Assembly: GCA_964598205.1 (NCBI GenBank)
Contig: CAZRBB010000005.1
Location: 5,721 to 69,720 of the forward strand
Direction: 5' to 3'
Origin: an uncultured Candidatus Saccharibacteria bacterium
GTDB lineage: Bacteria; Patescibacteriota; Minisyncoccia; CAIUEV01; JAHKAQ01
DNA length: 64,000 nucleotides
Numbering within the stretch: the first letter of the stretch is position 1; every line of letters begins with the position of its first letter. Positions 38,810-64,000 of the stretch are shown here, one piece after another. Both the position numbers and the translations under genes were made by a program. The notes beneath the pieces are model-generated. The model was not told the origin of the DNA. It searched no databases and worked only from the letters and a program-made list of their open reading frames with translations.

Positions 38810-38884
38810 TGGGCAGTACAGGGTTCGAACCTGTGGCCTTACGAGTGTGAATCGTACGCTCTAAACCAACTGAGCTAACCGCCC
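38810..38884 (-). tRNA. tRNA-Val (anticodon CAC)
   Basis: The reverse complement folds as a cloverleaf: acceptor GGGCGGT/ACTGCCC, D-arm GCTC..GAGC, anticodon stem TACGA/TCGTA with loop TTCACAC, T-arm ACAGG TTCGAAC CCTGT, and discriminator A. No CCA is encoded. Confidence 0.85.
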
Positions 38885-42469: not shown

Positions 42470-42541
42470 GCCGAGTTCGTCTAGGGGTTAGGACGCCAGG
42501 TTCTCATCCTGGTAACACGGGTTCGAGTCCCGTACTCGGTA
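42470..42541 (+). tRNA. tRNA-Glu (anticodon CUC)
   Basis: Cloverleaf: acceptor GCCGAGT/ACTCGGT (G1-U72 wobble), anticodon stem CCAGG/CCTGG with loop TTCTCAT, T-arm ACGGG TTCGAGT CCCGT, and discriminator A. Confidence 0.85.
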
Positions 42542-54802: not shown

Positions 54803-55804
54803 ATGGAAAAAATAATAAAAATAATTCCCGAAAAATTAAAAGAAGGCGATGAAATAAGAGTAATCGCTCCGTCTCAGTCTTTGGCTATTATTTCCGAAGA
54901 AATCAAAACAATAGCTTTAGAGCGTTTTTTTGAAATCAACATTCAAATAACTTTTGGAGAAAACGCAGAAGAAAAAGACGAAACCAATTCCAGTCGAATT
55001 GATTCCCGCATTAAAGACTTGCACCAAGCTTTTAGCGACCCCAAGGTTAAAGGAATATTAACGGTCTTGGGTGGTTTTAATAGCAATCAGCTCCTAGATT
55101 ATTTGGATTGGGAACTAATCAAGAAAAATCCCAAAATCTTTTGCGGTTTTGCCGACATCACCGCCCTAAATAATGCCATCTTTCAAAAAACGGGTCTGGT
55201 CAACTATTCTGGTCCCGACTTCTCTACTTTTGGTCAAAGACTTTATTTTGAATACACGCTAGAATATTTTAAAAAATGCTTGTTTCTGAATTACCCTTTT
55301 TATTGTGGCGCCTCCAAGGAATGGAGCGACGATTCCTGGTTTTTGGATCAAAACAACCGAAGTCTAACCACTAATAGTGGCCTATCTTTAATCAAAGAAG
55401 GAGAAGCAGAGGGAACAATTGTTGGAGGTAACCTAAGTACTTTTAGGCTACTTCAGGGAACACAATATTTTCCAAGCTTGGAGGGTACCATTCTTTTTAT
55501 AGAAGAAGACGGCGAAATTCCACTAGAAAAACTAGATAGGGATCTACAATCACTGATCCATCTTCCTGATTTTAAGGGGGTAAAGGGAATGATTTTTGGC
55601 CGATTCCAAAGAGGAAGTAGTTTAGATGAATACAAAATCAAACAGTTAGTTGATTCCAAAAAGGAACTTGCTAATTTACCCATGATTGCTGGAGTAGACT
55701 TTGGCCATACCGATCCTAAAATCACTTTTCCTATTGGCGGCAAAGCCAGAATCAAAGCCTACGAAGCAATGGAGCATTTAGAGCTAGAGATATTAGAACA
55801 CTAA
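54803..55804 (+). CDS. Peptidase S66 family (LD-carboxypeptidase LdcA / microcin-C immunity MccF-like) homolog with Ala at the predicted nucleophile position
   Basis: 333 aa. EGDEIRVIAPSQSL, LTVLGGFNSN and CGFADITAL correspond to the S66 G(F/Y)SD(I)TAL block, with Ser replaced by Ala. LFIEEDGE carries the Glu, and GVDFGHTDP carries the His. Confidence 0.75.
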   Translation: MEKIIKIIPEKLKEGDEIRVIAPSQSLAIISEEIKTIALERFFEINIQITFGENAEEKDETNSSRIDSRIKDLHQAFSDPKVKGILTVLGGFNSNQLLDYLDWELIKKNPKIFCGFADITALNNAIFQKTGLVNYSGPDFSTFGQRLYFEYTLEYFKKCLFLNYPFYCGASKEWSDDSWFLDQNNRSLTTNSGLSLIKEGEAEGTIVGGNLSTFRLLQGTQYFPSLEGTILFIEEDGEIPLEKLDRDLQSLIHLPDFKGVKGMIFGRFQRGSSLDEYKIKQLVDSKKELANLPMIAGVDFGHTDPKITFPIGGKARIKAYEAMEHLELEILEH

Positions 55805-55810
55805 TAAGCC

Positions 55811-56776
55811 ATGCCCACACTACAACTCTATTCTAATTGGTGGTGGATTCGTTTTCTTTTAACACAAAAGTGCAACCAAAAATGCCCCGACTGTTCTCTT
55901 TGTGAGCTTAAAAAAAACAAGGATGATTTTATAGATCCCAAAAAAATTATTGATGCTTTTAGAGTCTTTTCTCTTTGGGGTTATCGGAATGTCACTCTTT
56001 ACGGAGGAGAACCACTGCTTCATCCTTCTTTCCTTAATATTTACAACAAAGCTCAGCACTTTTTCCCAAATATCCAAGTATTTACCAACGGAACAATTAC
56101 CTTCCCAATAAAAATTGTTCCTAGAAAAACAGATTTTTTTATTTTCAATTTTGACTTTAATAAAAATAAAACCTTTATTAAAAATGTTTTCTTTTTAAGG
56201 AAAAATATTCATCCTCACTTGAATTTTAGCATTATTGTTCAGAAAGAAACCGATATTAATCAATTAAAAGCTGATTTGAATTTTTTTGTTAAAAACAATC
56301 TTCAGGATTTTTCTGTTCGTATTTCCATGAACTGTTTTGCAGATATCCTAAAAGAAAAGAAAATTCTTAATCAGAAAATAGTCAGTTTAATAGGCGTTCT
56401 GCAAGAATTGGGTATCCCTTGTGGAATGGCACAAAAAATCCCTCTCTGTTTTTTTCTTTTTCCACTAAAAAAAATCATTAAGTCAACAGTGAATCCCTTT
56501 TGTGGGAAAGAATGTGGTGGTCTTATAGACCCGAATTTTAATATTTTATCTTGTGGAGCGCTATATCGTTACGAGATTAACCCTAGAGATATTAAACCAA
56601 AAAATATGTTTTATAAAAACAAAATTATTTCTCGCAAAAAACATCAAGAAGTGCTTAAACAAATTCTTAAAATTAAATTAAAAAGAAAATCTCCTGATCC
56701 AAAATGCCAAGCTTGCGAATACTACAAAAGAAGAGATTGTGACAGTACCGGCTGTTTTCCTTATACTAAACCATAG
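55811..56776 (+). CDS. Radical SAM protein with a Cys-rich SPASM/twitch-like C-terminal region
   Basis: 321 aa. FLLTQKCNQKCPDC provides the CxxxCxxC motif, and GGEPLLHP is the SAM-binding GGE motif. The C-terminus carries CGMAQKIPLC...CGKECGG...SCGALY...CQACEYYKRRDCDSTGC. It lies 7 nt downstream of the S66 gene. Confidence 0.75.
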   Translation: MPTLQLYSNWWWIRFLLTQKCNQKCPDCSLCELKKNKDDFIDPKKIIDAFRVFSLWGYRNVTLYGGEPLLHPSFLNIYNKAQHFFPNIQVFTNGTITFPIKIVPRKTDFFIFNFDFNKNKTFIKNVFFLRKNIHPHLNFSIIVQKETDINQLKADLNFFVKNNLQDFSVRISMNCFADILKEKKILNQKIVSLIGVLQELGIPCGMAQKIPLCFFLFPLKKIIKSTVNPFCGKECGGLIDPNFNILSCGALYRYEINPRDIKPKNMFYKNKIISRKKHQEVLKQILKIKLKRKSPDPKCQACEYYKRRDCDSTGCFPYTKP

Positions 56777-56781
56777 ACAAA

Positions 56782-58488
56782 TCATTTCTGTTTTTCTTTA
56801 TTCACTTTTTTCTCTTTTTTATTTTTAAATTTATCAACAATTATTTTCTTTACCATTATTAACCAAGGAAAAAATAAAGTCACCCCCAAAAGCGTCCAAA
56901 AAACTCTCCTATTAAACTGGTCACGGAGACAGACCACTCCTTCAATTTTTTTACAATCATAAATCTCTTTCATTGTCTTTTTTGATTCTCCCTTACTATT
57001 GTAAGAACTTACTTCTAATTCTAAATAATCAAGGTCTTTTGGAGCTTTAATCTTATTCCTCCATCCCTTTATCACTCCGTCTATTTTCCCCACATAAACA
57101 GCTCTTCCAATTTCTCCTCCTTCTTTGTCTTTTAATAAAAGTTCTATTCTTGAAACATTATTTTCATTGGCTAGTGATTGTTTTTTTTGAATATCCTGAA
57201 AAAATTCATATAAACTTAAATCAAAAAAACCCGTAAAAAGATCCACCGTTTCTCCTTTTCTTATTGGAAATTTATTAATACCAGTACCAATTAAACATGG
57301 CACATCTCCTTTATACTCAAGAAAGATCGGAAAATAAACAATATATTTCCTCCCTTCGCCTTCAATTAAAACCTGGAGAGAGGAGCCACCAAAAGTATTG
57401 TCCGCTCCATAAAATCCCTTCTCCTTAAAAGTTTTTTGAGCCCTCTCAATATAATCGTCCAAATTGAACTCATGAGAAACTTCTTCTGTTGACCTTGGTT
57501 TTACTGCAAAAGAACGCCTTTCGGCAATTTCGTTCAAATCCTTATCCAAGCCCGCAAATCTTCCGCCAAAAAAATTAATCAAATCATAACGAACATTAAA
57601 ATTCTTTGCTTCTTGTGAATTATTAAACATTTTAAAACGAACTGTTACCTGAGAATAGCTAATAATATTCTGGATATTTTTGATAAAAAATCTATTCTCT
57701 TTATTTATCATTTCAAAATCAAAACCCCCATCCTTGGAAACCAAGCCAAAACTTTTATCACCCTTTAATACGGAAAAAATAAAAGAACCTCTAGAAAGTT
57801 TTGGGAGCCACTGACGAGGATTAGCATAAAGCATGGAACCCTCAAGTCTCCGCGAAACACTACTATCAACAGCTCCTACATCTAAGGAATAATTTCCTGG
57901 GGGAATATTTTCTGGAATAGTGTATAAAAAAGAAATCTTCTTTTCCCTTCCCCCTGTCAAATCAAAAGAATTGGGAGTTATTAGAAATAAATCATTCAAC
58001 AATTCAGTAGGATAATAATTTGCACCTAGTGTCTTTAATGATCCATGAATTTTTATATTAACTAACGGATAGCTTTCTGGATTTTTTAATAAAATATTCA
58101 AAATAATCTTCTCCCCACCTTTTAGCTCTTTATTGTTTTTATCACCATTCTCTTTTACTGCAGAAACTAGCTCAAGAACAGATTGCTGATTGGATTTTTG
58201 ATACCCCGCTCTATTTACCAATTCTCCAAGATAAAAAGGTTCACCAATAGACCCTTCCCTTACATAATTCCCTCCCAAACCAAAAGAAGGATCTTTTAGC
58301 AAAAAAGCATCAGGGGCCAGTCGTTCATTTTTTATAATTTCGTTCTTGTGATTACGAAAATACAGAACGAGAAAAACGATTAGTATCCCAATTGAAAGAA
58401 CAGTAAGTACTTTCTGCCAAGCAAGTATTTTTTTTACTTTTTTGTCTTTATTCATAAGACCGCTTAATAAAAAGTATCTAAGGGACAT
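56782..58488 (-). CDS. Paralog 1 of a three-member family of bitopic (TM at both ends) surface/extracytoplasmic proteins
   Basis: 568 aa. The likely true start is at M12 (MNKDKK, ~58455), by alignment with the paralog N-termini. It has an N-terminal TM, a large hydrophilic body sharing blocks with 58498..60054 and 61315..63000, a conserved C-terminal YDCKKIEGVVCLRDQFNRRVFW, and a second TM. Confidence 0.6.
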   Translation of the reverse strand: MSLRYFLLSGLMNKDKKVKKILAWQKVLTVLSIGILIVFLVLYFRNHKNEIIKNERLAPDAFLLKDPSFGLGGNYVREGSIGEPFYLGELVNRAGYQKSNQQSVLELVSAVKENGDKNNKELKGGEKIILNILLKNPESYPLVNIKIHGSLKTLGANYYPTELLNDLFLITPNSFDLTGGREKKISFLYTIPENIPPGNYSLDVGAVDSSVSRRLEGSMLYANPRQWLPKLSRGSFIFSVLKGDKSFGLVSKDGGFDFEMINKENRFFIKNIQNIISYSQVTVRFKMFNNSQEAKNFNVRYDLINFFGGRFAGLDKDLNEIAERRSFAVKPRSTEEVSHEFNLDDYIERAQKTFKEKGFYGADNTFGGSSLQVLIEGEGRKYIVYFPIFLEYKGDVPCLIGTGINKFPIRKGETVDLFTGFFDLSLYEFFQDIQKKQSLANENNVSRIELLLKDKEGGEIGRAVYVGKIDGVIKGWRNKIKAPKDLDYLELEVSSYNSKGESKKTMKEIYDCKKIEGVVCLRDQFNRRVFWTLLGVTLFFPWLIMVKKIIVDKFKNKKEKKVNKEKQK

Positions 58489-58497
58489 TCTTGTTGA

Positions 58498-60054
58498 CTA
58501 GTCACGAAGACAAGCCACTCCTTCAATCTTTTTGCAATCGTAAATCTCTTCCGTTGTTTTATCTAATTTCCCTTGATTGTTATAAATGCTCGCCGTTAAC
58601 TCTAAATAATCAAGGTCTTTTGGAGCTTTAATCTTATTCCTCCATCCCTTTGTTGATCCGTCTATTTTCCCCACATAAACAGCTCTTCCAATTTCTCCTC
58701 CTTCTTTGTCTTTTAATAAAAGTTCTATTCTTGAAACATTATTTTCATTGGCTAATACTTGCTTCTCTTTGCTATTTTGAAAGGATTGAGACAATCTTAA
58801 ATCAAGAAAGCCTGTAAAAAGATCTACCGTTTCTCCTTTTCTTATTGGAAATTTACTAATATTGGGAACAGTCAAGCAAGCCGCATACCCCTTAAATTCA
58901 CGAAACAGGGGAAAGTAAACAATATATTTTCTTCCTTCGCCCTCAATTAAAATCTGGAGAGAAGAGAATCCAAAAATATTATCCGCCCAAGAAAAATCCT
59001 TATCATTAAAAGATTTTTGAGCCCTTTCAATATAATCGTCCAAATTGAACTCGTGAAAAACTTCTTCTGTTGACCCTGGTTTTACTGTAAAAGAACGCCT
59101 TTCGGCAATTTTGTCCAAGTCTTTATTAAAATCCATAAACAATCCACCGGCAAGATTAATTAAATCATAACGAACACTAAAATTCTTTGCTTCTTGTGAA
59201 TCATTAAACATTTTGAAACGAACCCCTACTTGAGGATAACTAACAATATTCCAAGAACTTTTTAATGAAAATTTGTTCTCTTTGTTTATTATTTCAAAAT
59301 CAAGATCCCCATCCTTAGAAACCAAGCCAAAACTTTTATCACCATCTAGCACGGAAAAAATCAAAGAACCTTTAGGCGGCTTCTTCCACCCCCAATTACG
59401 ATAAAAAGTGAAACCGGCCAAATAACGATGATTATTCCCCTCAGTGGCTCCCAATTCTAAGGAATAATTTCCTGGAGGAATATTTTCTGGAATAGTGTAT
59501 AAAAAAGAAATCTTTTTTTCCTTTCCCCCTGCTAAATCAAAAGAATTGGAAGTTATTAGAAAAAAATCATTCAAAAAACTGGTTGGAAGATTTTTATCGC
59601 CCACTATCCCTCTTAGAACCCCAGCAATTTTTATATTAACTAACGGATAGTTTTCTGGATTTCTAAATAAAATATTTAGAACAATCTTCTCCCCACCTTT
59701 TAGCTCTTTATTGTTTTTATCACCATTCTCTTTTACTGCAGAAACTAGCTCAAGAACAGATTGCTGATTGGATTTTTGATACCCCGCTCTATTTACCAAT
59801 TCTCCAAGATAAAAAGGTTCACCAATAGACCCTTCCCTTACATAATTCCCTCCCAAACCAAAAGAAGAATCTTTTAGCAAAGATGATTCAGGAGAAACAA
59901 AAGACTCTTTTTCAAAAATCAATCTTTTGCGACTGCGAAAAAAAAGAACGAGAGAAGCAACTAATACCAAAACCAAAAAAACAACAAATATCTTTCGCCA
60001 AAAAAAAACATTTTTTAATTTTACTTCTTTCTCTTTATTTTTTATTATATCCAC
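58498..60054 (-). CDS. Paralog 2 of the surface-protein family, lacking the C-terminal TM
   Basis: 518 aa with the same N-terminal TM and conserved blocks. It ends ...YDCKKIEGVACLRD* at a TAG that is in frame with the start of paralog 1. Confidence 0.6.
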   Translation of the reverse strand: MDIIKNKEKEVKLKNVFFWRKIFVVFLVLVLVASLVLFFRSRKRLIFEKESFVSPESSLLKDSSFGLGGNYVREGSIGEPFYLGELVNRAGYQKSNQQSVLELVSAVKENGDKNNKELKGGEKIVLNILFRNPENYPLVNIKIAGVLRGIVGDKNLPTSFLNDFFLITSNSFDLAGGKEKKISFLYTIPENIPPGNYSLELGATEGNNHRYLAGFTFYRNWGWKKPPKGSLIFSVLDGDKSFGLVSKDGDLDFEIINKENKFSLKSSWNIVSYPQVGVRFKMFNDSQEAKNFSVRYDLINLAGGLFMDFNKDLDKIAERRSFTVKPGSTEEVFHEFNLDDYIERAQKSFNDKDFSWADNIFGFSSLQILIEGEGRKYIVYFPLFREFKGYAACLTVPNISKFPIRKGETVDLFTGFLDLRLSQSFQNSKEKQVLANENNVSRIELLLKDKEGGEIGRAVYVGKIDGSTKGWRNKIKAPKDLDYLELTASIYNNQGKLDKTTEEIYDCKKIEGVACLRD

Positions 60055-60110: not shown

Positions 60111-61337
60111 TTATCCCTTTGGTCCACCGTTCTGGTAGGTACTCGCTAAAAATCCTTCGGCAAAGAAATTAGTCTCTCCGTCTATCTTCCAAAGATTAAA
60201 GGTTCGTATTTTCTTTTTTAGTTCCTTAATTTTTACTATCTTAATCCACTCTTTCTTTAGACTAAAAAGCTCGTCTCCTTCTTTTAATTCAAAAGGATTT
60301 TTAACATGAGTAGCAATCTTACATTTTTTAAAATTCTTTTTACTCAAAACACCCCAACCAATTTTATCTTTCTTTTTTGAATACAATGGGTGCTCTGCAG
60401 ACACTACTAATCTTTTACCGTTTTCCATTAGTAATTCAAACATGTCTTCCCGTTGAGCAGTGGTAATAGTTCTAATAACTTTTTTTTCTAATTTATTTTC
60501 ATTAACATTGTAAGAAACCACCTTTTGTCCAATTTTTAATTTATCAATAGGAAGAGACTTGTTTTCGTAAAGAGCAATTTTGGTATTACTAGCAAAGCAT
60601 TGGTCACTGCCGCTATCGGCTGTGGTGCAGTTGGTGGTGTAATCGATGGAGGTAGTGGAGGTAGTTTCGGTAGTGGAGGTAGTTTCGGTAGTGGAGGTAG
60701 TTTCGGTAGTGGAGGTAGTTTCGGTAGTGGAGGGGGCGGGAATGTAGAGGTAGTAGAGGTAGTAGTAGTAGTCGTAGGTGTCGGAGTAGGTGTTGGAGTA
60801 GGTGTTGGAGTAGGTGTTGGAGTAGGTGTTGGAGTAGGTGTTATGATAATTATTAACATACTGGCTGGTAGTGGCGGTAGTGGCGGTAGTGGCGGTAGTG
60901 GCGGTAGTTTCGGTGAAGGTAGTGGAGGTAGTGGAGGTAGTGGAGGTAGTGCTGGTAGTGGCGGTAGTACAGTCGCAATCACAGGTTGTTCCTGCTGGAG
61001 TAATTGTTGGATACGCTTCATCCCAAGAACTAGCACTCCCTGTCCAACTACCACTGTTCGTAGGAACAGCATAAACCCTGTCCCCTTTAAACAATTGACT
61101 AACGCTGCTTAATAAAACATCATCGTTCTGGTGAACCCGATGAACCATAAAAGTATAATCCGTCCTTGCAGAATAATTAAAACCAGCGGAAATATTACTT
61201 CCAGTGCAGGAAGAACTTGCAGATTGATTGGTAGGAGAAGCCGCTAAGACGCTCTCCCCCTTTTCTTGATTCTTAGAAGCCAAAAAAGAAGAAGCGCAGA
61301 GAAGAGAAATAAGTTTAGCAATGTCCCTTTTTTTCAT
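60111..61337 (-). CDS. Secreted Ser/Thr-rich tandem-repeat protein with a C-terminal Hint (Hedgehog/intein-like) domain
   Basis: 408 aa with a signal peptide, then repeats (TTS)n, (TTA)n, (YSNT)5, YYYYLYYLY and (TTETTS)4. The Hint-like domain runs CFASNTKIALYENKSLPIDKLKIGQKVVSYN...VVSAEHPLYS...KEGDELF...TFNLWKIDGETNFFAEGFLASTYQN. Confidence 0.65.
   Translation of the reverse strand: MKKRDIAKLISLLCASSFLASKNQEKGESVLAASPTNQSASSSCTGSNISAGFNYSARTDYTFMVHRVHQNDDVLLSSVSQLFKGDRVYAVPTNSGSWTGSASSWDEAYPTITPAGTTCDCDCTTATTSTTSTTSTTSTTFTETTATTATTATTATTSQYVNNYHNTYSNTYSNTYSNTYSNTYSDTYDYYYYLYYLYIPAPSTTETTSTTETTSTTETTSTTETTSTTSIDYTTNCTTADSGSDQCFASNTKIALYENKSLPIDKLKIGQKVVSYNVNENKLEKKVIRTITTAQREDMFELLMENGKRLVVSAEHPLYSKKKDKIGWGVLSKKNFKKCKIATHVKNPFELKEGDELFSLKKEWIKIVKIKELKKKIRTFNLWKIDGETNFFAEGFLASTYQNGGPKG
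60648..60960. repeat. Perfect in-frame coding tandem repeats (18-nt x4, 15-nt x5, 9-nt x7) inside the Hint-protein gene
   Basis: ggaggtagtttcggtagt repeats 4 times at ~60648-60735. gtaggtgttggagta repeats 5 times at ~60774-60843. ggtagtggc/ggtagtgga repeats 7 times at ~60866-60960. These produce ORFs in all frames (60536..61072, 60600..61112, 60871..61074). Confidence 0.9.
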
Positions 61338-63000
61338 TTTTCTTTTTTAATTTATCAACGATAATTAAGGCTAGCACTAAACCGGAGAAAAATAAAGTCA
61401 CTCCTAAAAGCGTCCAAAGAACTTTCCGGTTAAACTGGTCACGGAGACAAACGGCTCCTTCAATCTTTTCACAATCGTAGACATCTTTCATTGTCCTTTC
61501 CAATTCCCCTTGATTGTTATAAATACTCATCGTTAACTCTAAGTAATCAAGATCATTTTGAACTTTTATTTTATTTCTCCAACCTTTTGTTACGCCATCA
61601 ACCTTTCCTATATAAACGGTCCTTCCTATTTCATTTCCATCTTTATCTTTTAATAAGAGCTCTATTTTAGAAACATTGTTTTCGCTAGCTAATGATTGCT
61701 TTTTTTGAATATCTTGGAAAAATTCAAACAACATTAAATCAAAAAAACCCGTGAAAAGATCCACCGTCTCCCCTTTTTTTATAGGGAATTTACTAATACC
61801 AAAATTATGCGAATATGTCCCTGCCATTTCAAATTCAAGATACAAAGGAAAGTAAACAATATATTTTCTTCCTTCACCCTCAATTAAAACCTGAAGAGTA
61901 GAAGAACTAAAAGAATTATCCGCCCAATAAAATCCCTTTTCCCTAAAAGCTTTCTGAGCCCTTTTAATGTAGTCTTCCAGATTAAACTCATGAAGAACTT
62001 CTTCGGTTGATCTCGGTTTTACCGTAAAAGAAGCCCTTTCGGGAACTTTGTCTAAATCCTTATCCAGATCCGCAAATATTCCACCAAAAAGATTAATTAA
62101 ATCATAACGAACACTAAAATTCTTTGCTTCTTGTGAATCATTAAACATTTTAAAACGAACCCCTACTTGAGGATAGCTAATAATAATCCAAGGATTTTTT
62201 AATGAAAATTTATTCTCTTTGTTTATCACTTCAAAATCAAGATCCTCATCCTTAGAAACCAAGCCAAAACTTTTATCACCATCTACTACGGAAAACACCA
62301 AAGAGGTTCTGCCAACCTGTATCTCCCGATCGATATAAACAAAACCACTTCCATCTAAATATCGCAAAGCATTACTATCAACGGCTCCTACACCTATAGA
62401 GTATTCTCCCGGAGAAATGTTTTCTGGAATAGTATATGGAAAAGAAATCTTCTTTTCCATTCCTCCCGCCAAACTAAAAGAATTAGGAGTTATTAAAAAG
62501 AAATCATTCAGCAATTTAGTAAGTCTGCCTGCATGTCGCGTCTTTAATGCTCCATGAATTTTTATATTAACTAACGGATAGCTTTCTGGATTTTTTAATA
62601 AAATATTCAAAATAATCTTCTCCCCACCTTTTAGCTCTTTATCGTTTTTTATATCACCATTTTCATTTTCTACAGAAATTAGTCTGAGTATAGCTTGATT
62701 TTTGCGGTTTTTCCACCATCCTCTATTTATCAATTCTCCAAGATAAAAAGGTTCACCAATAGACCCCTCTCTTACATAATTCCCTCCCAAACCAAAAGAA
62801 GGATCTTTCGATAAAGATGTTTCATGAGAAACAGAAGTCTCTTTTCTAAAAATTCCGCTTTTACGATTGCGAAAGAAAAGAACAAGAGAAGCAACTAATA
62901 CCAAAACCAAAAAAACAACAAATATCTTTCGCCAAAAAAAAATATTTTTTAGCTTCCCTTTTTCATCTCCACTTTCGTTTTTGTTTTTGTTTTTGTCCAT
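61315..63000 (-). CDS. Paralog 3 of the bitopic surface-protein family
   Basis: 561 aa with an N-terminal TM (FFWRKIFVVFLVLVLVASLVLFF, identical to paralog 2). It has conserved blocks and a C-terminal YDCEKIEGAVCLRDQFNRKVLW followed by a TM. Confidence 0.6.
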   Translation of the reverse strand: MDKNKNKNESGDEKGKLKNIFFWRKIFVVFLVLVLVASLVLFFRNRKSGIFRKETSVSHETSLSKDPSFGLGGNYVREGSIGEPFYLGELINRGWWKNRKNQAILRLISVENENGDIKNDKELKGGEKIILNILLKNPESYPLVNIKIHGALKTRHAGRLTKLLNDFFLITPNSFSLAGGMEKKISFPYTIPENISPGEYSIGVGAVDSNALRYLDGSGFVYIDREIQVGRTSLVFSVVDGDKSFGLVSKDEDLDFEVINKENKFSLKNPWIIISYPQVGVRFKMFNDSQEAKNFSVRYDLINLFGGIFADLDKDLDKVPERASFTVKPRSTEEVLHEFNLEDYIKRAQKAFREKGFYWADNSFSSSTLQVLIEGEGRKYIVYFPLYLEFEMAGTYSHNFGISKFPIKKGETVDLFTGFFDLMLFEFFQDIQKKQSLASENNVSKIELLLKDKDGNEIGRTVYIGKVDGVTKGWRNKIKVQNDLDYLELTMSIYNNQGELERTMKDVYDCEKIEGAVCLRDQFNRKVLWTLLGVTLFFSGLVLALIIVDKLKKKNEKKGHC

Positions 63001-63150: not shown

Positions 63151-64000
63151 ATGGAAAAATTTTTCTCAAATTTAATATCCCCTTTCCGCTCAACAATAAA
63201 AAAGAAGATTAGATTCAAGAAAGAAATCTTCACCAATACTCTAAAAATTAATTTAACTCAAAGCTGCAATCAAGAACATCTTTCTTGTTACTCTAAATGC
63301 CCAGAAGAAAACAACAACACTTTCATAAAAAAAGAGAAATTACTAAAAACAATGAAAGAATTCTCTTTTTGGGGGTTAAAGAGAATTTCCTTTTCAGGAG
63401 GAGAGCCCTTGCTTCATCCGGACTTCTTTTTTATTTATAACCAAGCCCAAATACTATTTGAAGAAGTTCGAGTTTCCACTAATGGAACCATTCCCCTACA
63501 AGGAGAGCTGGTAGCTAGACAAAGCGATGTCTTTATTTTTAATTTTAAATTTTCAAAAGATGAAAATTTTATTAGAAACTTACATTTACTAAACAATAAA
63601 ACAAACCCTAAAATATTATTCAACATTTTAATAGAAAAAGACACTAACATTCCTCTTTACAAGGAACAGATTCTCCTTTTAAAAAACATTAATTTAAAAA
63701 GAATACTCTTTTCTCTTTCCTTTGATTCCAAAAAAAACATTAACCAAGAAAAAGAAATTCTTAACGAAAAAACTTTTGAAATAGTTAATTTCATTTATAA
63801 CAATAGACAGAATTGCATTCTTCATCAAAGAGTTCCTTACTGCTTTCTCCTTCCAAAATTAAAAGAATTACTAAAAATAAAGACTCCCCAAGGCTATAGC
63901 CTAGAATGCTTAGGAATGCTGGATCACAATTTCAACATCTACCCCTGCCCTCAACACCACCAAGAAAAAAATCCCAAAAACATGTTTTCTAAAAACGACA
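63151..64000 (+). CDS. Divergent paralog of the 55811..56776 radical-SAM protein with a non-canonical Cys spacing (3' end beyond the window)
   Basis: ATG is at 63151 and no stop occurs before 64000, which is why it is missing from the ORF track. The translation runs MEKFFSNL...INLTQSCNQEHLSCYSKCPEEN...FSGGEPLLHPDFFFIYNQAQ...FIFNFKFSKDENF...CFLLPKLKELL...ECLGMLDHNFNIYPCPQ. It is clearly homologous to rSAM1 (GGEPLLHP, FIFNF(D/K)F, NMF(Y/S)KN), but the cluster motif is Cx6Cx3C. Confidence 0.65.
   Translation, partial: MEKFFSNLISPFRSTIKKKIRFKKEIFTNTLKINLTQSCNQEHLSCYSKCPEENNNTFIKKEKLLKTMKEFSFWGLKRISFSGGEPLLHPDFFFIYNQAQILFEEVRVSTNGTIPLQGELVARQSDVFIFNFKFSKDENFIRNLHLLNNKTNPKILFNILIEKDTNIPLYKEQILLLKNINLKRILFSLSFDSKKNINQEKEILNEKTFEIVNFIYNNRQNCILHQRVPYCFLLPKLKELLKIKTPQGYSLECLGMLDHNFNIYPCPQHHQEKNPKNMFSKND

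Follow-up and report, generated by a model that had tools for sequence, protein, structure and literature searches.

SuiB, SkfB, anSME, CteB and PqqE are SPASM/twitch enzymes that modify peptides and proteins. They share a layout in which the radical SAM core comes first and the C-terminal domain, rich in Cys, contains a C-x16-C element and a CxxC...C...C block, and the two proteins considered here, rSAM1 and rSAM2, are laid out in the same way. The SPASM signature is a seven-Cys motif, CX9-15GX4C-gap-CX2CX5CX3C-gap-C, and auxiliary clusters held by three Cys with an open site, or by non-Cys ligands (Asp in PqqE, Ser in LipA, Arg in BioB), are established (PMC6231123). Departures from CX3CX2C in the SAM-binding cluster are known in ThiC (CX2CX4C), HmdB (CX5CX2C), QueE (CX14CX2C) and PhnJ (CX2CX21CX5C), which are active nonetheless and which keep three Cys by a change of spacing found throughout each family (PMC4389238). 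NCBIfam also holds a "pseudo-SAM/SPASM" family, TIGR04347, of radical SAM/SPASM homologs with a degenerate SAM-cluster motif. Radical SAM paralogs that work as partners are known as well, for instance Dph1-Dph2 (PMC11048331), a pair with unequal subunit roles. The best-scoring named NCBIfam and PADLOC models for our pair are those of pVip and MoaA, with which it has a CN(x)xC..C / GGEP / TNG core in common.

The radical SAM pair and its family

The stretch analyzed is a window of 64,000 nucleotides from an uncultured bacterium of ultra-small size. rSAM1 is an ORF at 55811-56776 on the forward strand, encoding a radical SAM enzyme of 321 aa whose C-terminal half is rich in Cys and SPASM-like; rSAM2, also on the forward strand, has the first 283 of its 331 codons inside the window (63151-64000) and runs 146 bp past its end. 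As the first-pass annotation had it, they flank a surface-protein cassette. That annotation, made on the truncated rSAM2, suggested recovering the whole gene, searching both proteins with PF04055 and SPASM profiles, and building a phylogeny of the pair. The complete 331-aa rSAM2 (protein P0001, at L001:17353-18348) was recovered from another, longer contig of this genome. The window, L001, L009 and L010 have the same rSAM2 DNA, and there is no difference across both rSAM genes in four independent assemblies, so the features of rSAM2 described below are not assembly errors.

Both proteins score above the PF04055 gathering score of 29.5 bits, with 31.7 for rSAM1 and 38.2 for rSAM2, and all 44 family members match this profile. 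The AlphaFold2 models (rSAM1 with pLDDT 87.1 and pTM 0.88, rSAM2 with pLDDT 86.3 and pTM 0.85) are confident and near-identical folds of alternating beta and alpha elements at a pLDDT of 86-87, with 18 extra residues at the N-terminus of rSAM2 modeled as a low-confidence helix. The GGE motif and a partial TIM-barrel core are present, and Foldseek matches to radical SAM structures have a probability of 1.0. For the rSAM2 model, the top matches include SuiB, SkfB, anSME, CteB and PqqE at probability 1.0, with TM scores of 0.56-0.65 over 300-360 columns. The resemblance extends to the SPASM/twitch fold, the family profile aligning to SuiB over positions 12-299.

The profile search for SPASM came out the other way, PF13186 having no match at E ≤ 1 for rSAM1 or rSAM2 and none at E ≤ 0.01 for any of the 44 members (0/44). 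Unlike the SPASM/twitch enzymes, the pair also lacks the conserved Gly, the final Cys and an RRE, the triad starting at residue 21 in rSAM1 and 39 in rSAM2 with no N-terminal RRE ahead of it; both proteins are shorter (~300 aa), and in rSAM2 the middle triad Cys is missing as well. We found no specific NCBIfam model for the family, and more distant members of the wider family are located in RiPP-like clusters. The family is unnamed and SPASM-like.

The pVip and MoaA likeness is confined to the first ~85-90 residues, the C-terminal halves being unrelated. Against the viperin/pVip model NF038283, with a cutoff of 180 bits, the two proteins score 31.4 and 37.5 bits over residues ~13-114 only; the PADLOC pVip matches are partial, covering profile positions 2-89 of ~260; and the MoaA equivalog models, with cutoffs of 231-325 bits, reach at most 50 bits in the N-terminal third only. 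A defense-system assignment was considered on the basis of the pVip matches and set aside for their being partial. Auxiliary-cluster Cys are absent from viperin. Neither protein belongs to TIGR04347, scoring 22.7-23.3 bits against a cutoff of 525.

The cluster motif of rSAM2

In rSAM1, the cluster motif C21-x3-C25-x2-C28 with an extra C31 is encoded at 55871-55903 on the forward strand by the codons TGC AAC CAA AAA TGC CCC GAC TGT TCT CTT TGT, so that the triad has CX3CX2C form, and CNQKCPDC and GGEPLLHP are present as first annotated, at residues 21 and 65. The variant motif of rSAM2, within SCNQEHLSCYSKC at residue 38, is encoded at 63265-63300 on the forward strand, with C39 at 63265-63267, H43 at 63277-63279 (codon CAT), C46 at 63286-63288, and an extra C50, 4 residues past the third triad Cys, at 63298-63300. 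It had been described as a Cx6Cx3C spacing. The literal spacing of Cys 39, 46 and 50 is as stated, but what has changed is not the spacing: in every alignment the motif reads C39-x3-H43-x2-C46, with His where CX3CX2C has its middle Cys. Both MAFFT and HMMER, the latter against the CNKECLFC of solved viperin, place His43 on the middle Cys, and the motif region is ungapped between rSAM2 and rSAM1, the family, and viperin. In either protein, 44 residues separate the first Cys from GGEP, GGEPLLHP being at residue 83 in rSAM2 with TNGT also kept. The equal distance and the ungapped alignments together indicate a substitution and not an insertion.

This bears directly on the idea that Cx6Cx3C is a new spacing variant produced by insertions in the cluster loop, comparable to those of HmdB or QueE. 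Cys are indeed present at 39, 46 and 50, and active enzymes with variants of this kind are known (PMC4389238), but with no length difference between the sisters and His43 aligned on the middle Cys without gaps, an insertion is refuted and we regard the idea as very improbable. The spacing is not among the known variants listed in PMC4389238, and it is common in none of the relatives that we collected, so the refutation that the first-pass annotation had named for itself, by the spacing being common in a known active subfamily, fails. rSAM2 would join ThiC, HmdB, QueE and PhnJ as a CX6CX3C addition if Cys50 were a ligand, with the difference that it is a single sequence with a Cys-to-His change at unchanged length. 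Cys50 as the third ligand stays on as a sub-case of an altered-ligand explanation.

The column of position 43 is Cys in 43 of the 43 other family members, and rSAM2 is the only sequence to depart from CX3CX2C among 45 family members and 229 full-length relatives. Having a PF04055 match but no CX3CX2C triad, it is a homolog of the radical SAM superfamily that may or may not be an active member. It is also alone among 44 members in having no Pfam Fer4_12 match, and its Pfam Radical_SAM match begins at residue 48, after the motif. The extra Cys 3-4 residues past the triad is found in rSAM1 and rSAM2 and in none of the 43 other members; being unique to the sister pair, it is a plausible replacement ligand in rSAM2. 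Literature searches for strings of the CX3HX2C type returned no match in the library covered, and those on "pseudo-SAM" only irrelevant papers. We know of no radical SAM enzyme whose SAM-binding cluster has a ligand other than Cys. The Cys-to-His swap in the catalytic cluster motif appears, from these comparisons, to be a rare change. Apparent relatives without the N-terminal motif (P0004-7, P0050, P0059 and P0078), which resembled further degenerate copies, are gene-call or contig-end truncations; in L004 and L032 the actual ORFs have CX3CX2C.

C-terminal cysteines and auxiliary clusters

The Cys of rSAM1 are at positions 21, 25, 28, 31, 175, 204, 213, 231, 235, 248, 299, 302, 310 and 315, and all 12 that are conserved in the family, by an alignment of conserved columns, are among them. 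The last 120 residues hold 9 Cys and not the 7 first counted, and the tail starting at residue 299 (CQACEYYKRRDCDSTGC) is spaced Cx2Cx7Cx4C, in place of the Cx2Cx5Cx3C that had been read there. Set against the seven-Cys motif, rSAM1 shows C231-x16-C248, in which the Gly is missing, followed by this tail, and it has no final Cys, the protein ending 6 residues past the fourth tail Cys. Eight non-triad Cys are conserved in the C-terminal half across the family, which is enough for two auxiliary Fe-S clusters.

The first-pass annotation also held that rSAM2 had lost C-terminal Cys. Its tail has in fact kept all four (C310, C313, C321 and C325), as Cx2Cx7Cx3C where the family consensus is Cx2Cx6Cx3C, and the loss is real at two family-conserved positions upstream of it. 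Tyr249 (TAT, 63895-63897, forward strand) is in a column that is Cys in 43 of 43 other family members, rSAM2 alone being without this otherwise invariant auxiliary-cluster Cys; judged by spacing, that Cys would open the SPASM-type C-x(14-20)-C element (motif definition in PMC6231123). The second such change is C193S, at Ser193 (TCC, 63727-63729, forward strand), a column that is Cys in 36 of 43 other members.

One of three ligands invariant in 229 relatives is missing from rSAM2 along with an invariant auxiliary Cys, and these absences, like the lack of a Fer4_12 match and the late start of the Radical_SAM match, are in keeping with a catalytically dead pseudo-enzyme in which the fold, and perhaps a single auxiliary cluster, would be retained, and which would serve rSAM1 as a scaffold, a substrate-binding partner or an electron relay. 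This corresponds to the scaffold or regulatory partner of the first-pass annotation. The TIGR04347 family indicates that such proteins exist, and paired radical SAM paralogs are known in the Dph1-Dph2 case (PMC11048331). Against this, GGE and the other signatures of the SAM site and the ribose site are fully kept and would be superfluous if SAM binding were lost; unlike TIGR04347 proteins, rSAM2 has 2 of 3 triad Cys and GGE, with candidate replacement ligands His43 and Cys50 at the site; and rSAM1 and rSAM2 are neither adjacent nor co-oriented in one operon. We consider this account possible but rather doubtful.

Divergence of the two copies

The two proteins align end to end and form a sister pair at 100% bootstrap, as expected of the paralog pair that had been proposed. 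BLASTP finds 35% identity over 266 aa (E = 1e-49), and overall the identity is 35-37%, a divergence of ~63%. The pair would represent a duplication, within one lineage, of a single gene of the unnamed ~300-aa radical SAM family; an independent duplication of an rSAM gene is present in L004 (91.5% bootstrap). The branch of rSAM2 is slightly longer than that of rSAM1, and mean identities to the family are 23.8% and 24.5%, respectively. Of 43 conserved columns, rSAM2 misses 17, 10 of them in common with rSAM1; of its 7 own misses, three are Cys and one is F>S, the remaining three being conservative (R>K, L>M, I>L). With Cys making up 12 of those 43 columns, three Cys among seven own losses is not significantly above chance. 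rSAM2 is the atypical copy, being alone in its lack of CX3CX2C, of a Fer4_12 match and of the invariant auxiliary Cys.

The search for homologous proteins returned only rSAM2 itself, the exhaustive HMMER search leaves it alone in its 50% cluster, and scans of genome contigs and metagenome contigs gave no ortholog. As a singleton, rSAM2 is represented by a single sequence, the same in all four assemblies. The contig scan with the family pattern was swamped by generic GGEPLL-containing enzymes and gave one real relative, L032; a profile search of 5.8 billion proteins was likewise swamped, and it served only as background for the motif statistics.

A singleton without detectable orthologs, and with Cys losses that are not enriched among its changes, might be a functionless gene in early decay whose Cys losses are neutral damage. 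The retention of every non-Cys signature, at a divergence from the family no greater than that of rSAM1, argues against simple decay, as do an ORF of 331 codons intact despite ~63% divergence, a branch barely longer than that of rSAM1, a confident fold, and identity of the sequence across four samples, and this explanation strikes us as improbable.

The surface-protein and Hint cassette

The genes between rSAM1 and rSAM2 are on the reverse strand. Surface-protein paralog 1 (56782-58488, 568 aa), convergent with rSAM1, has N- and C-terminal TM segments; paralog 2 (58498-60054, 518 aa) is without the C-terminal one; a secreted Hint protein follows (60111-61337, 408 aa, Pfam Hint at 31.4 bits with a cutoff of 29.7); and paralog 3 (61315-63000, 561 aa) is divergent from rSAM2 across a 150-bp intergenic region. 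The Hint protein has, in order, a signal-peptide-like N-terminus, a conserved domain of ~120 aa ending in TTCDCDC, Thr-rich repeats, and the intein-like Hint domain at the C-terminus. Paralog 1 is 68-71% identical to paralogs 2 and 3 and 24-28% identical to homologs in L004 and L005, loci in which homologs of the Hint protein also adjoin rSAM family members. An rSAM gene, a surface protein of ~530 aa with two TM segments, and a secreted Hint protein thus recur as a trio in three loci (the window, L004 and L005) with differing surroundings, a co-occurrence that amounts to two or three genomes. The Hint protein has only 4 matches in a homolog search, marking the cassette as rare; in related genomes, the cassette is missing from the vicinity of the dcw cluster. 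Scans for promoters and terminators gave matches at chance level only, and a literature search linking Hint domains, radical SAM and CPR found none.

Upstream of rSAM1, a Peptidase S66 gene (LD-carboxypeptidase/MccF family; 54803-55804, forward strand; Pfam Peptidase_S66 and S66C, E = 1e-29 to 1e-30) ends 7 bp ahead of it, so the two are probably co-transcribed. That arrangement, which would tie rSAM1 to the peptidase and not to the cassette, together with the MoaA, viperin and pVip models as best NCBIfam and PADLOC matches, could be taken to mean that both rSAM proteins are viperin-like or MoaA-like small-molecule enzymes and merely neighbors of the cassette. The matches, however, do not extend past ~85 residues at the N-terminus and miss their cutoffs by a wide margin (50 against 231 bits, 37 against 180 bits), and the recurrence of the trio amid different neighbors and the absence of the cassette beside the dcw cluster of related genomes also count against it, making it quite improbable. 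From the gene neighborhood, the surface proteins and the Hint protein are likely substrates of the rSAM enzymes.

Possible roles of rSAM2

The reading toward which we tentatively lean, at a little less than probable, is that rSAM2 is a paralog that has been maintained and has diverged in function, its Fe-S ligation being altered. rSAM1, with all 12 conserved Cys, would be the ordinary catalytic copy. rSAM2 would have been kept under selection with its ligand set remodeled at His43, Tyr249 and Ser193, and with GGE, TNGT, the tail of four Cys and the rest of the conserved residues retained. It has most likely kept the ability to bind both SAM and a cluster, which may be ligated by Cys39 and Cys46 with either His43 or the extra Cys50, and it would have diverged from rSAM1 in substrate or chemistry. 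The surface and Hint proteins would be modified in the cytoplasm and then exported.

A more specific form of the altered-ligation reading, in which rSAM2 is a working enzyme with a [4Fe-4S] cluster on Cys39, Cys46 and His43 or Cys50, and acts with rSAM1 on a Hint-processed secreted protein and variable surface proteins, is in our view unlikely. If true, it would give a His/Cys50 ligand set undescribed for a SAM-cleaving cluster, and a protein-maturation system with no characterized counterpart.

With the rSAM2 variant being one sequence and the cassette occurring in three loci, these findings are a lead and not a discovery. If rSAM2 is active, the most conserved ligand triad of a very large superfamily tolerates a His or a relocated Cys, and it would be necessary to reconsider motif filters by which sequences of this kind are thrown out as dead. 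An inactive rSAM2 would instead be a clean case, provided by nature, of a radical SAM pseudo-enzyme kept near an active sister. Either way, the trio in uncultured Patescibacteria (CPR), cells that live attached to others, points to an unstudied route of surface-protein modification.

The rSAM1 and rSAM2 genes

rSAM1 is a forward-strand ORF of 321 aa at 55811-56776, with CNQKCPDC at residue 21, GGEPLLHP at 65, and CQACEYYKRRDCDSTGC at 299. rSAM2 begins on the same strand at 63151 and leaves the window after 283 codons, which include SCNQEHLSCYSKC and GGEPLLHP. The complete gene was obtained by an exact-sequence look-up of rSAM1, which found L001, a 91-kb JGI contig of the same genome with 99.8% identity to the window over an 18.2 kb overlap; there, rSAM2 (L001:17353-18348) encodes 331 aa with the C-terminal end ...KCQSCEYYKKGICNTGCFPYFKP. 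BLASTP aligns the two proteins end to end (35% identity across 266 residues, E = 1e-49) and each scores above the gathering threshold of 29.5 for Pfam Radical_SAM (rSAM1 31.7 bits, rSAM2 38.2 bits). The paralogs, and the motifs as literal strings, that the first-pass annotation reported are therefore real; its count of 7 Cys in the last 120 aa of rSAM1 is corrected to nine. rSAM2 is a singleton sequence, carried by four assemblies with identical DNA, which rules out an assembly error and is uninformative on selection.

Family, fold, and ancestry

An HMMER profile built from the pair, searched exhaustively against 1.84 billion cluster representatives, gave 4222 matches at E ≤ 1e-3 and only 100 at E ≤ 1e-10. 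The full-length top scorers are a family of ~300-aa proteins with the consensus LTE.CNA.C..CFN ... MGGEPT.HP ... FTN ... P.CF ... C...C.GLID...NL..C ... C..C......CNGGCF. Counting over 43 members, with rSAM1 and rSAM2 excluded, the triad of cysteines in CX3CX2C that holds the SAM-binding cluster is invariant (43/43), as are seven further Cys columns, and one more has Cys in 36/43; eight such cysteines suffice for two auxiliary [4Fe-4S] clusters.

In a Foldseek search of the PDB with the rSAM2 model, the first matches are SuiB, SkfB, BlsE, viperins, EpeE, anSME, CteB, and PqqE (prob 1.0, TM 0.45-0.65, 300-360 aligned columns), and the family profile aligns with SuiB across almost its full length. 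The Pfam SPASM model, however, matches no family member. No NCBIfam model matches at its cutoff, the best (MoaA, viperin, NirJ, HxsC, mycofactocin maturase) covering the first ~90 residues only. Of the seven-Cys SPASM motif, the conserved Gly and the final Cys are absent, and there is no room in these proteins for an N-terminal RRE domain. On these grounds we would describe the family as SPASM-like, by predicted fold and Cys pattern, and not as a SPASM-domain member.

In a bootstrapped neighbor-joining tree, rSAM1 and rSAM2 are sisters at 100%. Two adjacent copies in L004, one of two further cassette-bearing loci, are sisters at 91.5%, and the five cassette-associated sequences form one clade at 97.5%. 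Separate sister pairs within this clade indicate independent duplication in at least two cassette-carrying lineages; both L004 copies are canonical. More distant family members are without surface-protein or Hint neighbors and sit in RiPP-like clusters. In one of these (L028 1459-3587), which may be a RiPP cluster of the wider family, a 41-aa ORF (MDTQDKFNPWLMQNLNVSQQITVMTPSGWYEVDCFSDDGDD) lies ahead of a radical SAM/SPASM gene, family member P0015, and a pyroglutamyl (C15) peptidase. Another neighborhood has an S8 peptidase, another LanC-like and B12-radical SAM genes, and one more distant member is in an unrelated context that looks archaeal.

The cluster motif of rSAM2

The rSAM2 motif had been read as a Cx6Cx3C spacing. 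That string is literally present, but the alignments show a Cys-to-His substitution with no change of spacing. The distance from the first Cys to GGEP is 44 residues in both proteins (C21/G65 in rSAM1, C39/G83 in rSAM2), so they do not differ in length here. The motif is ungapped in a pairwise MAFFT alignment, in three family alignments of 10-45 sequences, and in an independent HMMER alignment to a solved fungal viperin (cnqehlscy vs CNKECLFCF), and all of these put C39 on Cys1, H43 on Cys2, and C46 on Cys3. The motif is therefore CX3HX2C, with His in place of the middle cysteine. The H43 codon is CAT, two substitutions from TGY. The third Cys of the earlier pattern, C50, is an extra residue at +4 from the true third Cys; rSAM1 has its own at +3 (C31), and an extra Cys there is found only in these two among 45 family members. 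Both have also lost the CFNxxxR family signature, so the region directly after the triad had already been remodeled in their common ancestor.

To gauge the rarity of the substitution, 229 full-length radical SAM proteins were gathered from profile searches, all of them containing GGEP with 40 or more residues ahead of it, and rSAM2 alone among them is without CX3CX2C. Of 44 members, 43 have a Pfam Fer4_12 match; the exception is rSAM2, whose Radical_SAM match starts at residue 48, past the motif. Active spacing variants are known, namely ThiC CX2CX4C, HmdB CX5CX2C, QueE CX14CX2C, and PhnJ CX2CX21CX5C (PMC4389238), and none of them equals the CX3HX2C change; in the literature searched, no paper with a CX3HX2C-type string was found. 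Among the relatives collected, Cx6Cx3C is not a common spacing. Several close relatives appeared motif-less (P0004-P0007, P0050, P0059, P0078) but are N-terminally truncated gene calls or contig ends. Those automatic calls begin either at the Met that directly precedes GGEP or ~24 residues ahead of this motif, and the upstream in-frame sequence of the short-called relatives carries CX3CX2C. The true ORF in L004 (9896-10843) has CNQHCPFC, and the full version in L032 has CNQKCPSC.

Conserved cysteines and the state of rSAM2

rSAM1 has all twelve conserved cysteines and rSAM2 is without three of them (C43H, C249Y, C193S). C249Y falls in a column that is invariant Cys elsewhere and, by spacing, is the first Cys of a SPASM-type C-x(14-20)-C element (as defined in PMC6231123). 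C193S is in a semi-conserved column, Cys being missing also in P0012, P0008, and P0024. A loss of C-terminal cysteines had been suggested; it holds for C249 and C193 in the visible region, and is wrong for the tail, which lay beyond the window. All four tail cysteines are present in the 331-aa protein, C299, C302, C310, and C315 of rSAM1 corresponding to C310, C313, C321, and C325.

The Cys changes aside, rSAM2 does not appear to be decaying. Against the 43 other members it averages 23.8% identity, compared with 24.5% for rSAM1, and its neighbor-joining branch is just slightly longer. At 43 columns conserved at ≥80%, it deviates at 17, 10 of them in common with rSAM1; the other seven, private to rSAM2, comprise the three Cys plus R>K, L>M, I>L, and F>S. 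Because 12/43 conserved columns are Cys, three Cys among seven is no significant excess. GGEPLLHP, TNGT, R123, D126, N131, P229, and the tail are kept. AlphaFold2 models built with a 44-sequence family alignment have pLDDT 86.3 and pTM 0.85 for rSAM2 and 87.1 and 0.88 for rSAM1, with confident, almost superimposable secondary-structure maps.

In the radical SAM cluster, three of the irons are bound by three Cys and the fourth is chelated by SAM (PMC4389238). Of the rSAM2 substitutions, the critical one is His43. In SPASM/twitch enzymes, an auxiliary cluster can have an open site or non-Cys ligands, and substrate can bind at that site (CteB, MoaA, SkfB, PqqE Asp, LipA Ser, BioB Arg; PMC6231123). 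On this precedent, an auxiliary cluster could persist in rSAM2 despite the loss of Cys249 and Cys193, which could open a coordination site that alters how substrate is held. The reading we rank first, tentatively, is a maintained, functionally diverged paralog with altered Fe-S ligation, since rSAM2 retains GGE along with two of the triad Cys and offers two candidate replacement ligands, His43 itself or the pair-specific Cys50. Ranked second, and rather unlikely, is a non-catalytic partner of rSAM1, which is close to the scaffold or regulatory role first suggested. Overall, the first-pass observation is confirmed in part and its interpretation partly supported.

The cassette and its neighborhood

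The pair does flank a cassette, of four opposite-strand genes. Three encode surface-protein paralogs (56782-58488, 58498-60054, and 61315-63000, all −) of 520-570 aa, ~70% identical, with terminal TM segments. The middle one ends ...CLRD without the C-terminal TM segment of the other two, its stop 10 bp from the start of the next gene. The fourth (60111-61337, −) encodes a 408-aa protein with a C-terminal Hint domain (31.4 bits, cutoff 29.7), preceded by a start that resembles a signal peptide, a conserved domain of ~120 aa that ends TTCDCDC, and Thr-rich repeats; the Thr-rich tracts give long spurious ORFs in other frames (60536-61112).

Nearest-relative look-ups found two further loci, both from run SRR33452766, L004 (1-20410) and L005 (1-20209). 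In each, an rSAM clade member lies within a few kb of a surface-protein homolog (24-28% identity, E 1e-27 to 1e-45) and near a Hint-protein homolog (L004 16746-17663, L005 15282-16184; E 1e-20 to 1e-32, two segments). The Hint-protein family is rare, with four matches in 5.8 billion proteins. In all three loci, an invariant P..P..TTCDC motif of the N-terminal domain stands directly ahead of the linker, and the Hint domain is at the extreme C-terminus with no C-extein, so it is an autoprocessing (Hog/BIL-like) module and not an intein. In known radical SAM thioether peptides, the cross-linked residues are Cys, Asp, and Thr. L004 and L005 are radical-SAM-rich islands with 6-7 such genes apiece, and around their surface and Hint genes are a glycosyltransferase, U32 peptidase, ThiF-like, nitroreductase, DUF6580, and PQQ-like beta-propeller.

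rSAM1 is likely co-transcribed with the gene that ends 7 bp ahead of it, a peptidase S66 of the LdcA/MccF family (54803-55804, +); neither the L004 nor the L005 cassette has one nearby. rSAM2 has an upstream region of its own, 150 bp long. Beyond the window end (L001 18358-20966 and L008 11006-20996), it is followed by a Gly-rich secreted protein (148 aa) and an exporter of the MacB/FtsX-ABC-MFP (YknX-like) type, both in L001. Next come an ECF-type sigma factor, UvrC, and a PMT_2 glycosyltransferase, and after these a third radical SAM similar in architecture, ~320 aa long (CNQNCPYC...CATCHYKKRQQCQGGC), and another of 483 aa. The host is one of the Patescibacteria (CPR), and its FtsI-type PBP shares 52% identity with the one in a Candidatus Moraniibacteriota MAG; in the related genomes retrieved, the cassette was not found beside the dcw cluster. 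Two tRNA genes (38810-38884, −; 42470-42541, +) are the only Rfam matches within the 64-kb window.

Just two regions differ between the window and L001, both within the cassette. One is a 65-bp patch in surface paralog 1 (58166-58230), where the window version equals paralog 2 (NRAGYQKSNQQSVLELVS) and the L001 version resembles paralog 3 (NRGWW...); the pattern resembles gene conversion within this set of paralogs, so that the surface proteins vary between strains. The other, at ~60782 in the NTYS repeat tract of the Hint protein, is a 12-bp unit indel giving 5 vs 6 units and 408 vs 412 aa.

From the conserved neighborhood, we propose the Hint protein and surface paralogs as putative substrates, which would be modified ahead of export in the way that anSME acts on sulfatases. 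The pair is best described as a duplication, within this lineage, of an unnamed SPASM-like radical SAM maturase, set in a rare surface-protein/Hint cassette of a CPR bacterium; one copy has CX3HX2C and is missing an invariant auxiliary-cluster Cys. It is possible that rSAM2 has an active cluster ligated by His or by a relocated Cys, and that the pair may serve in the maturation of Hint-processed surface proteins.
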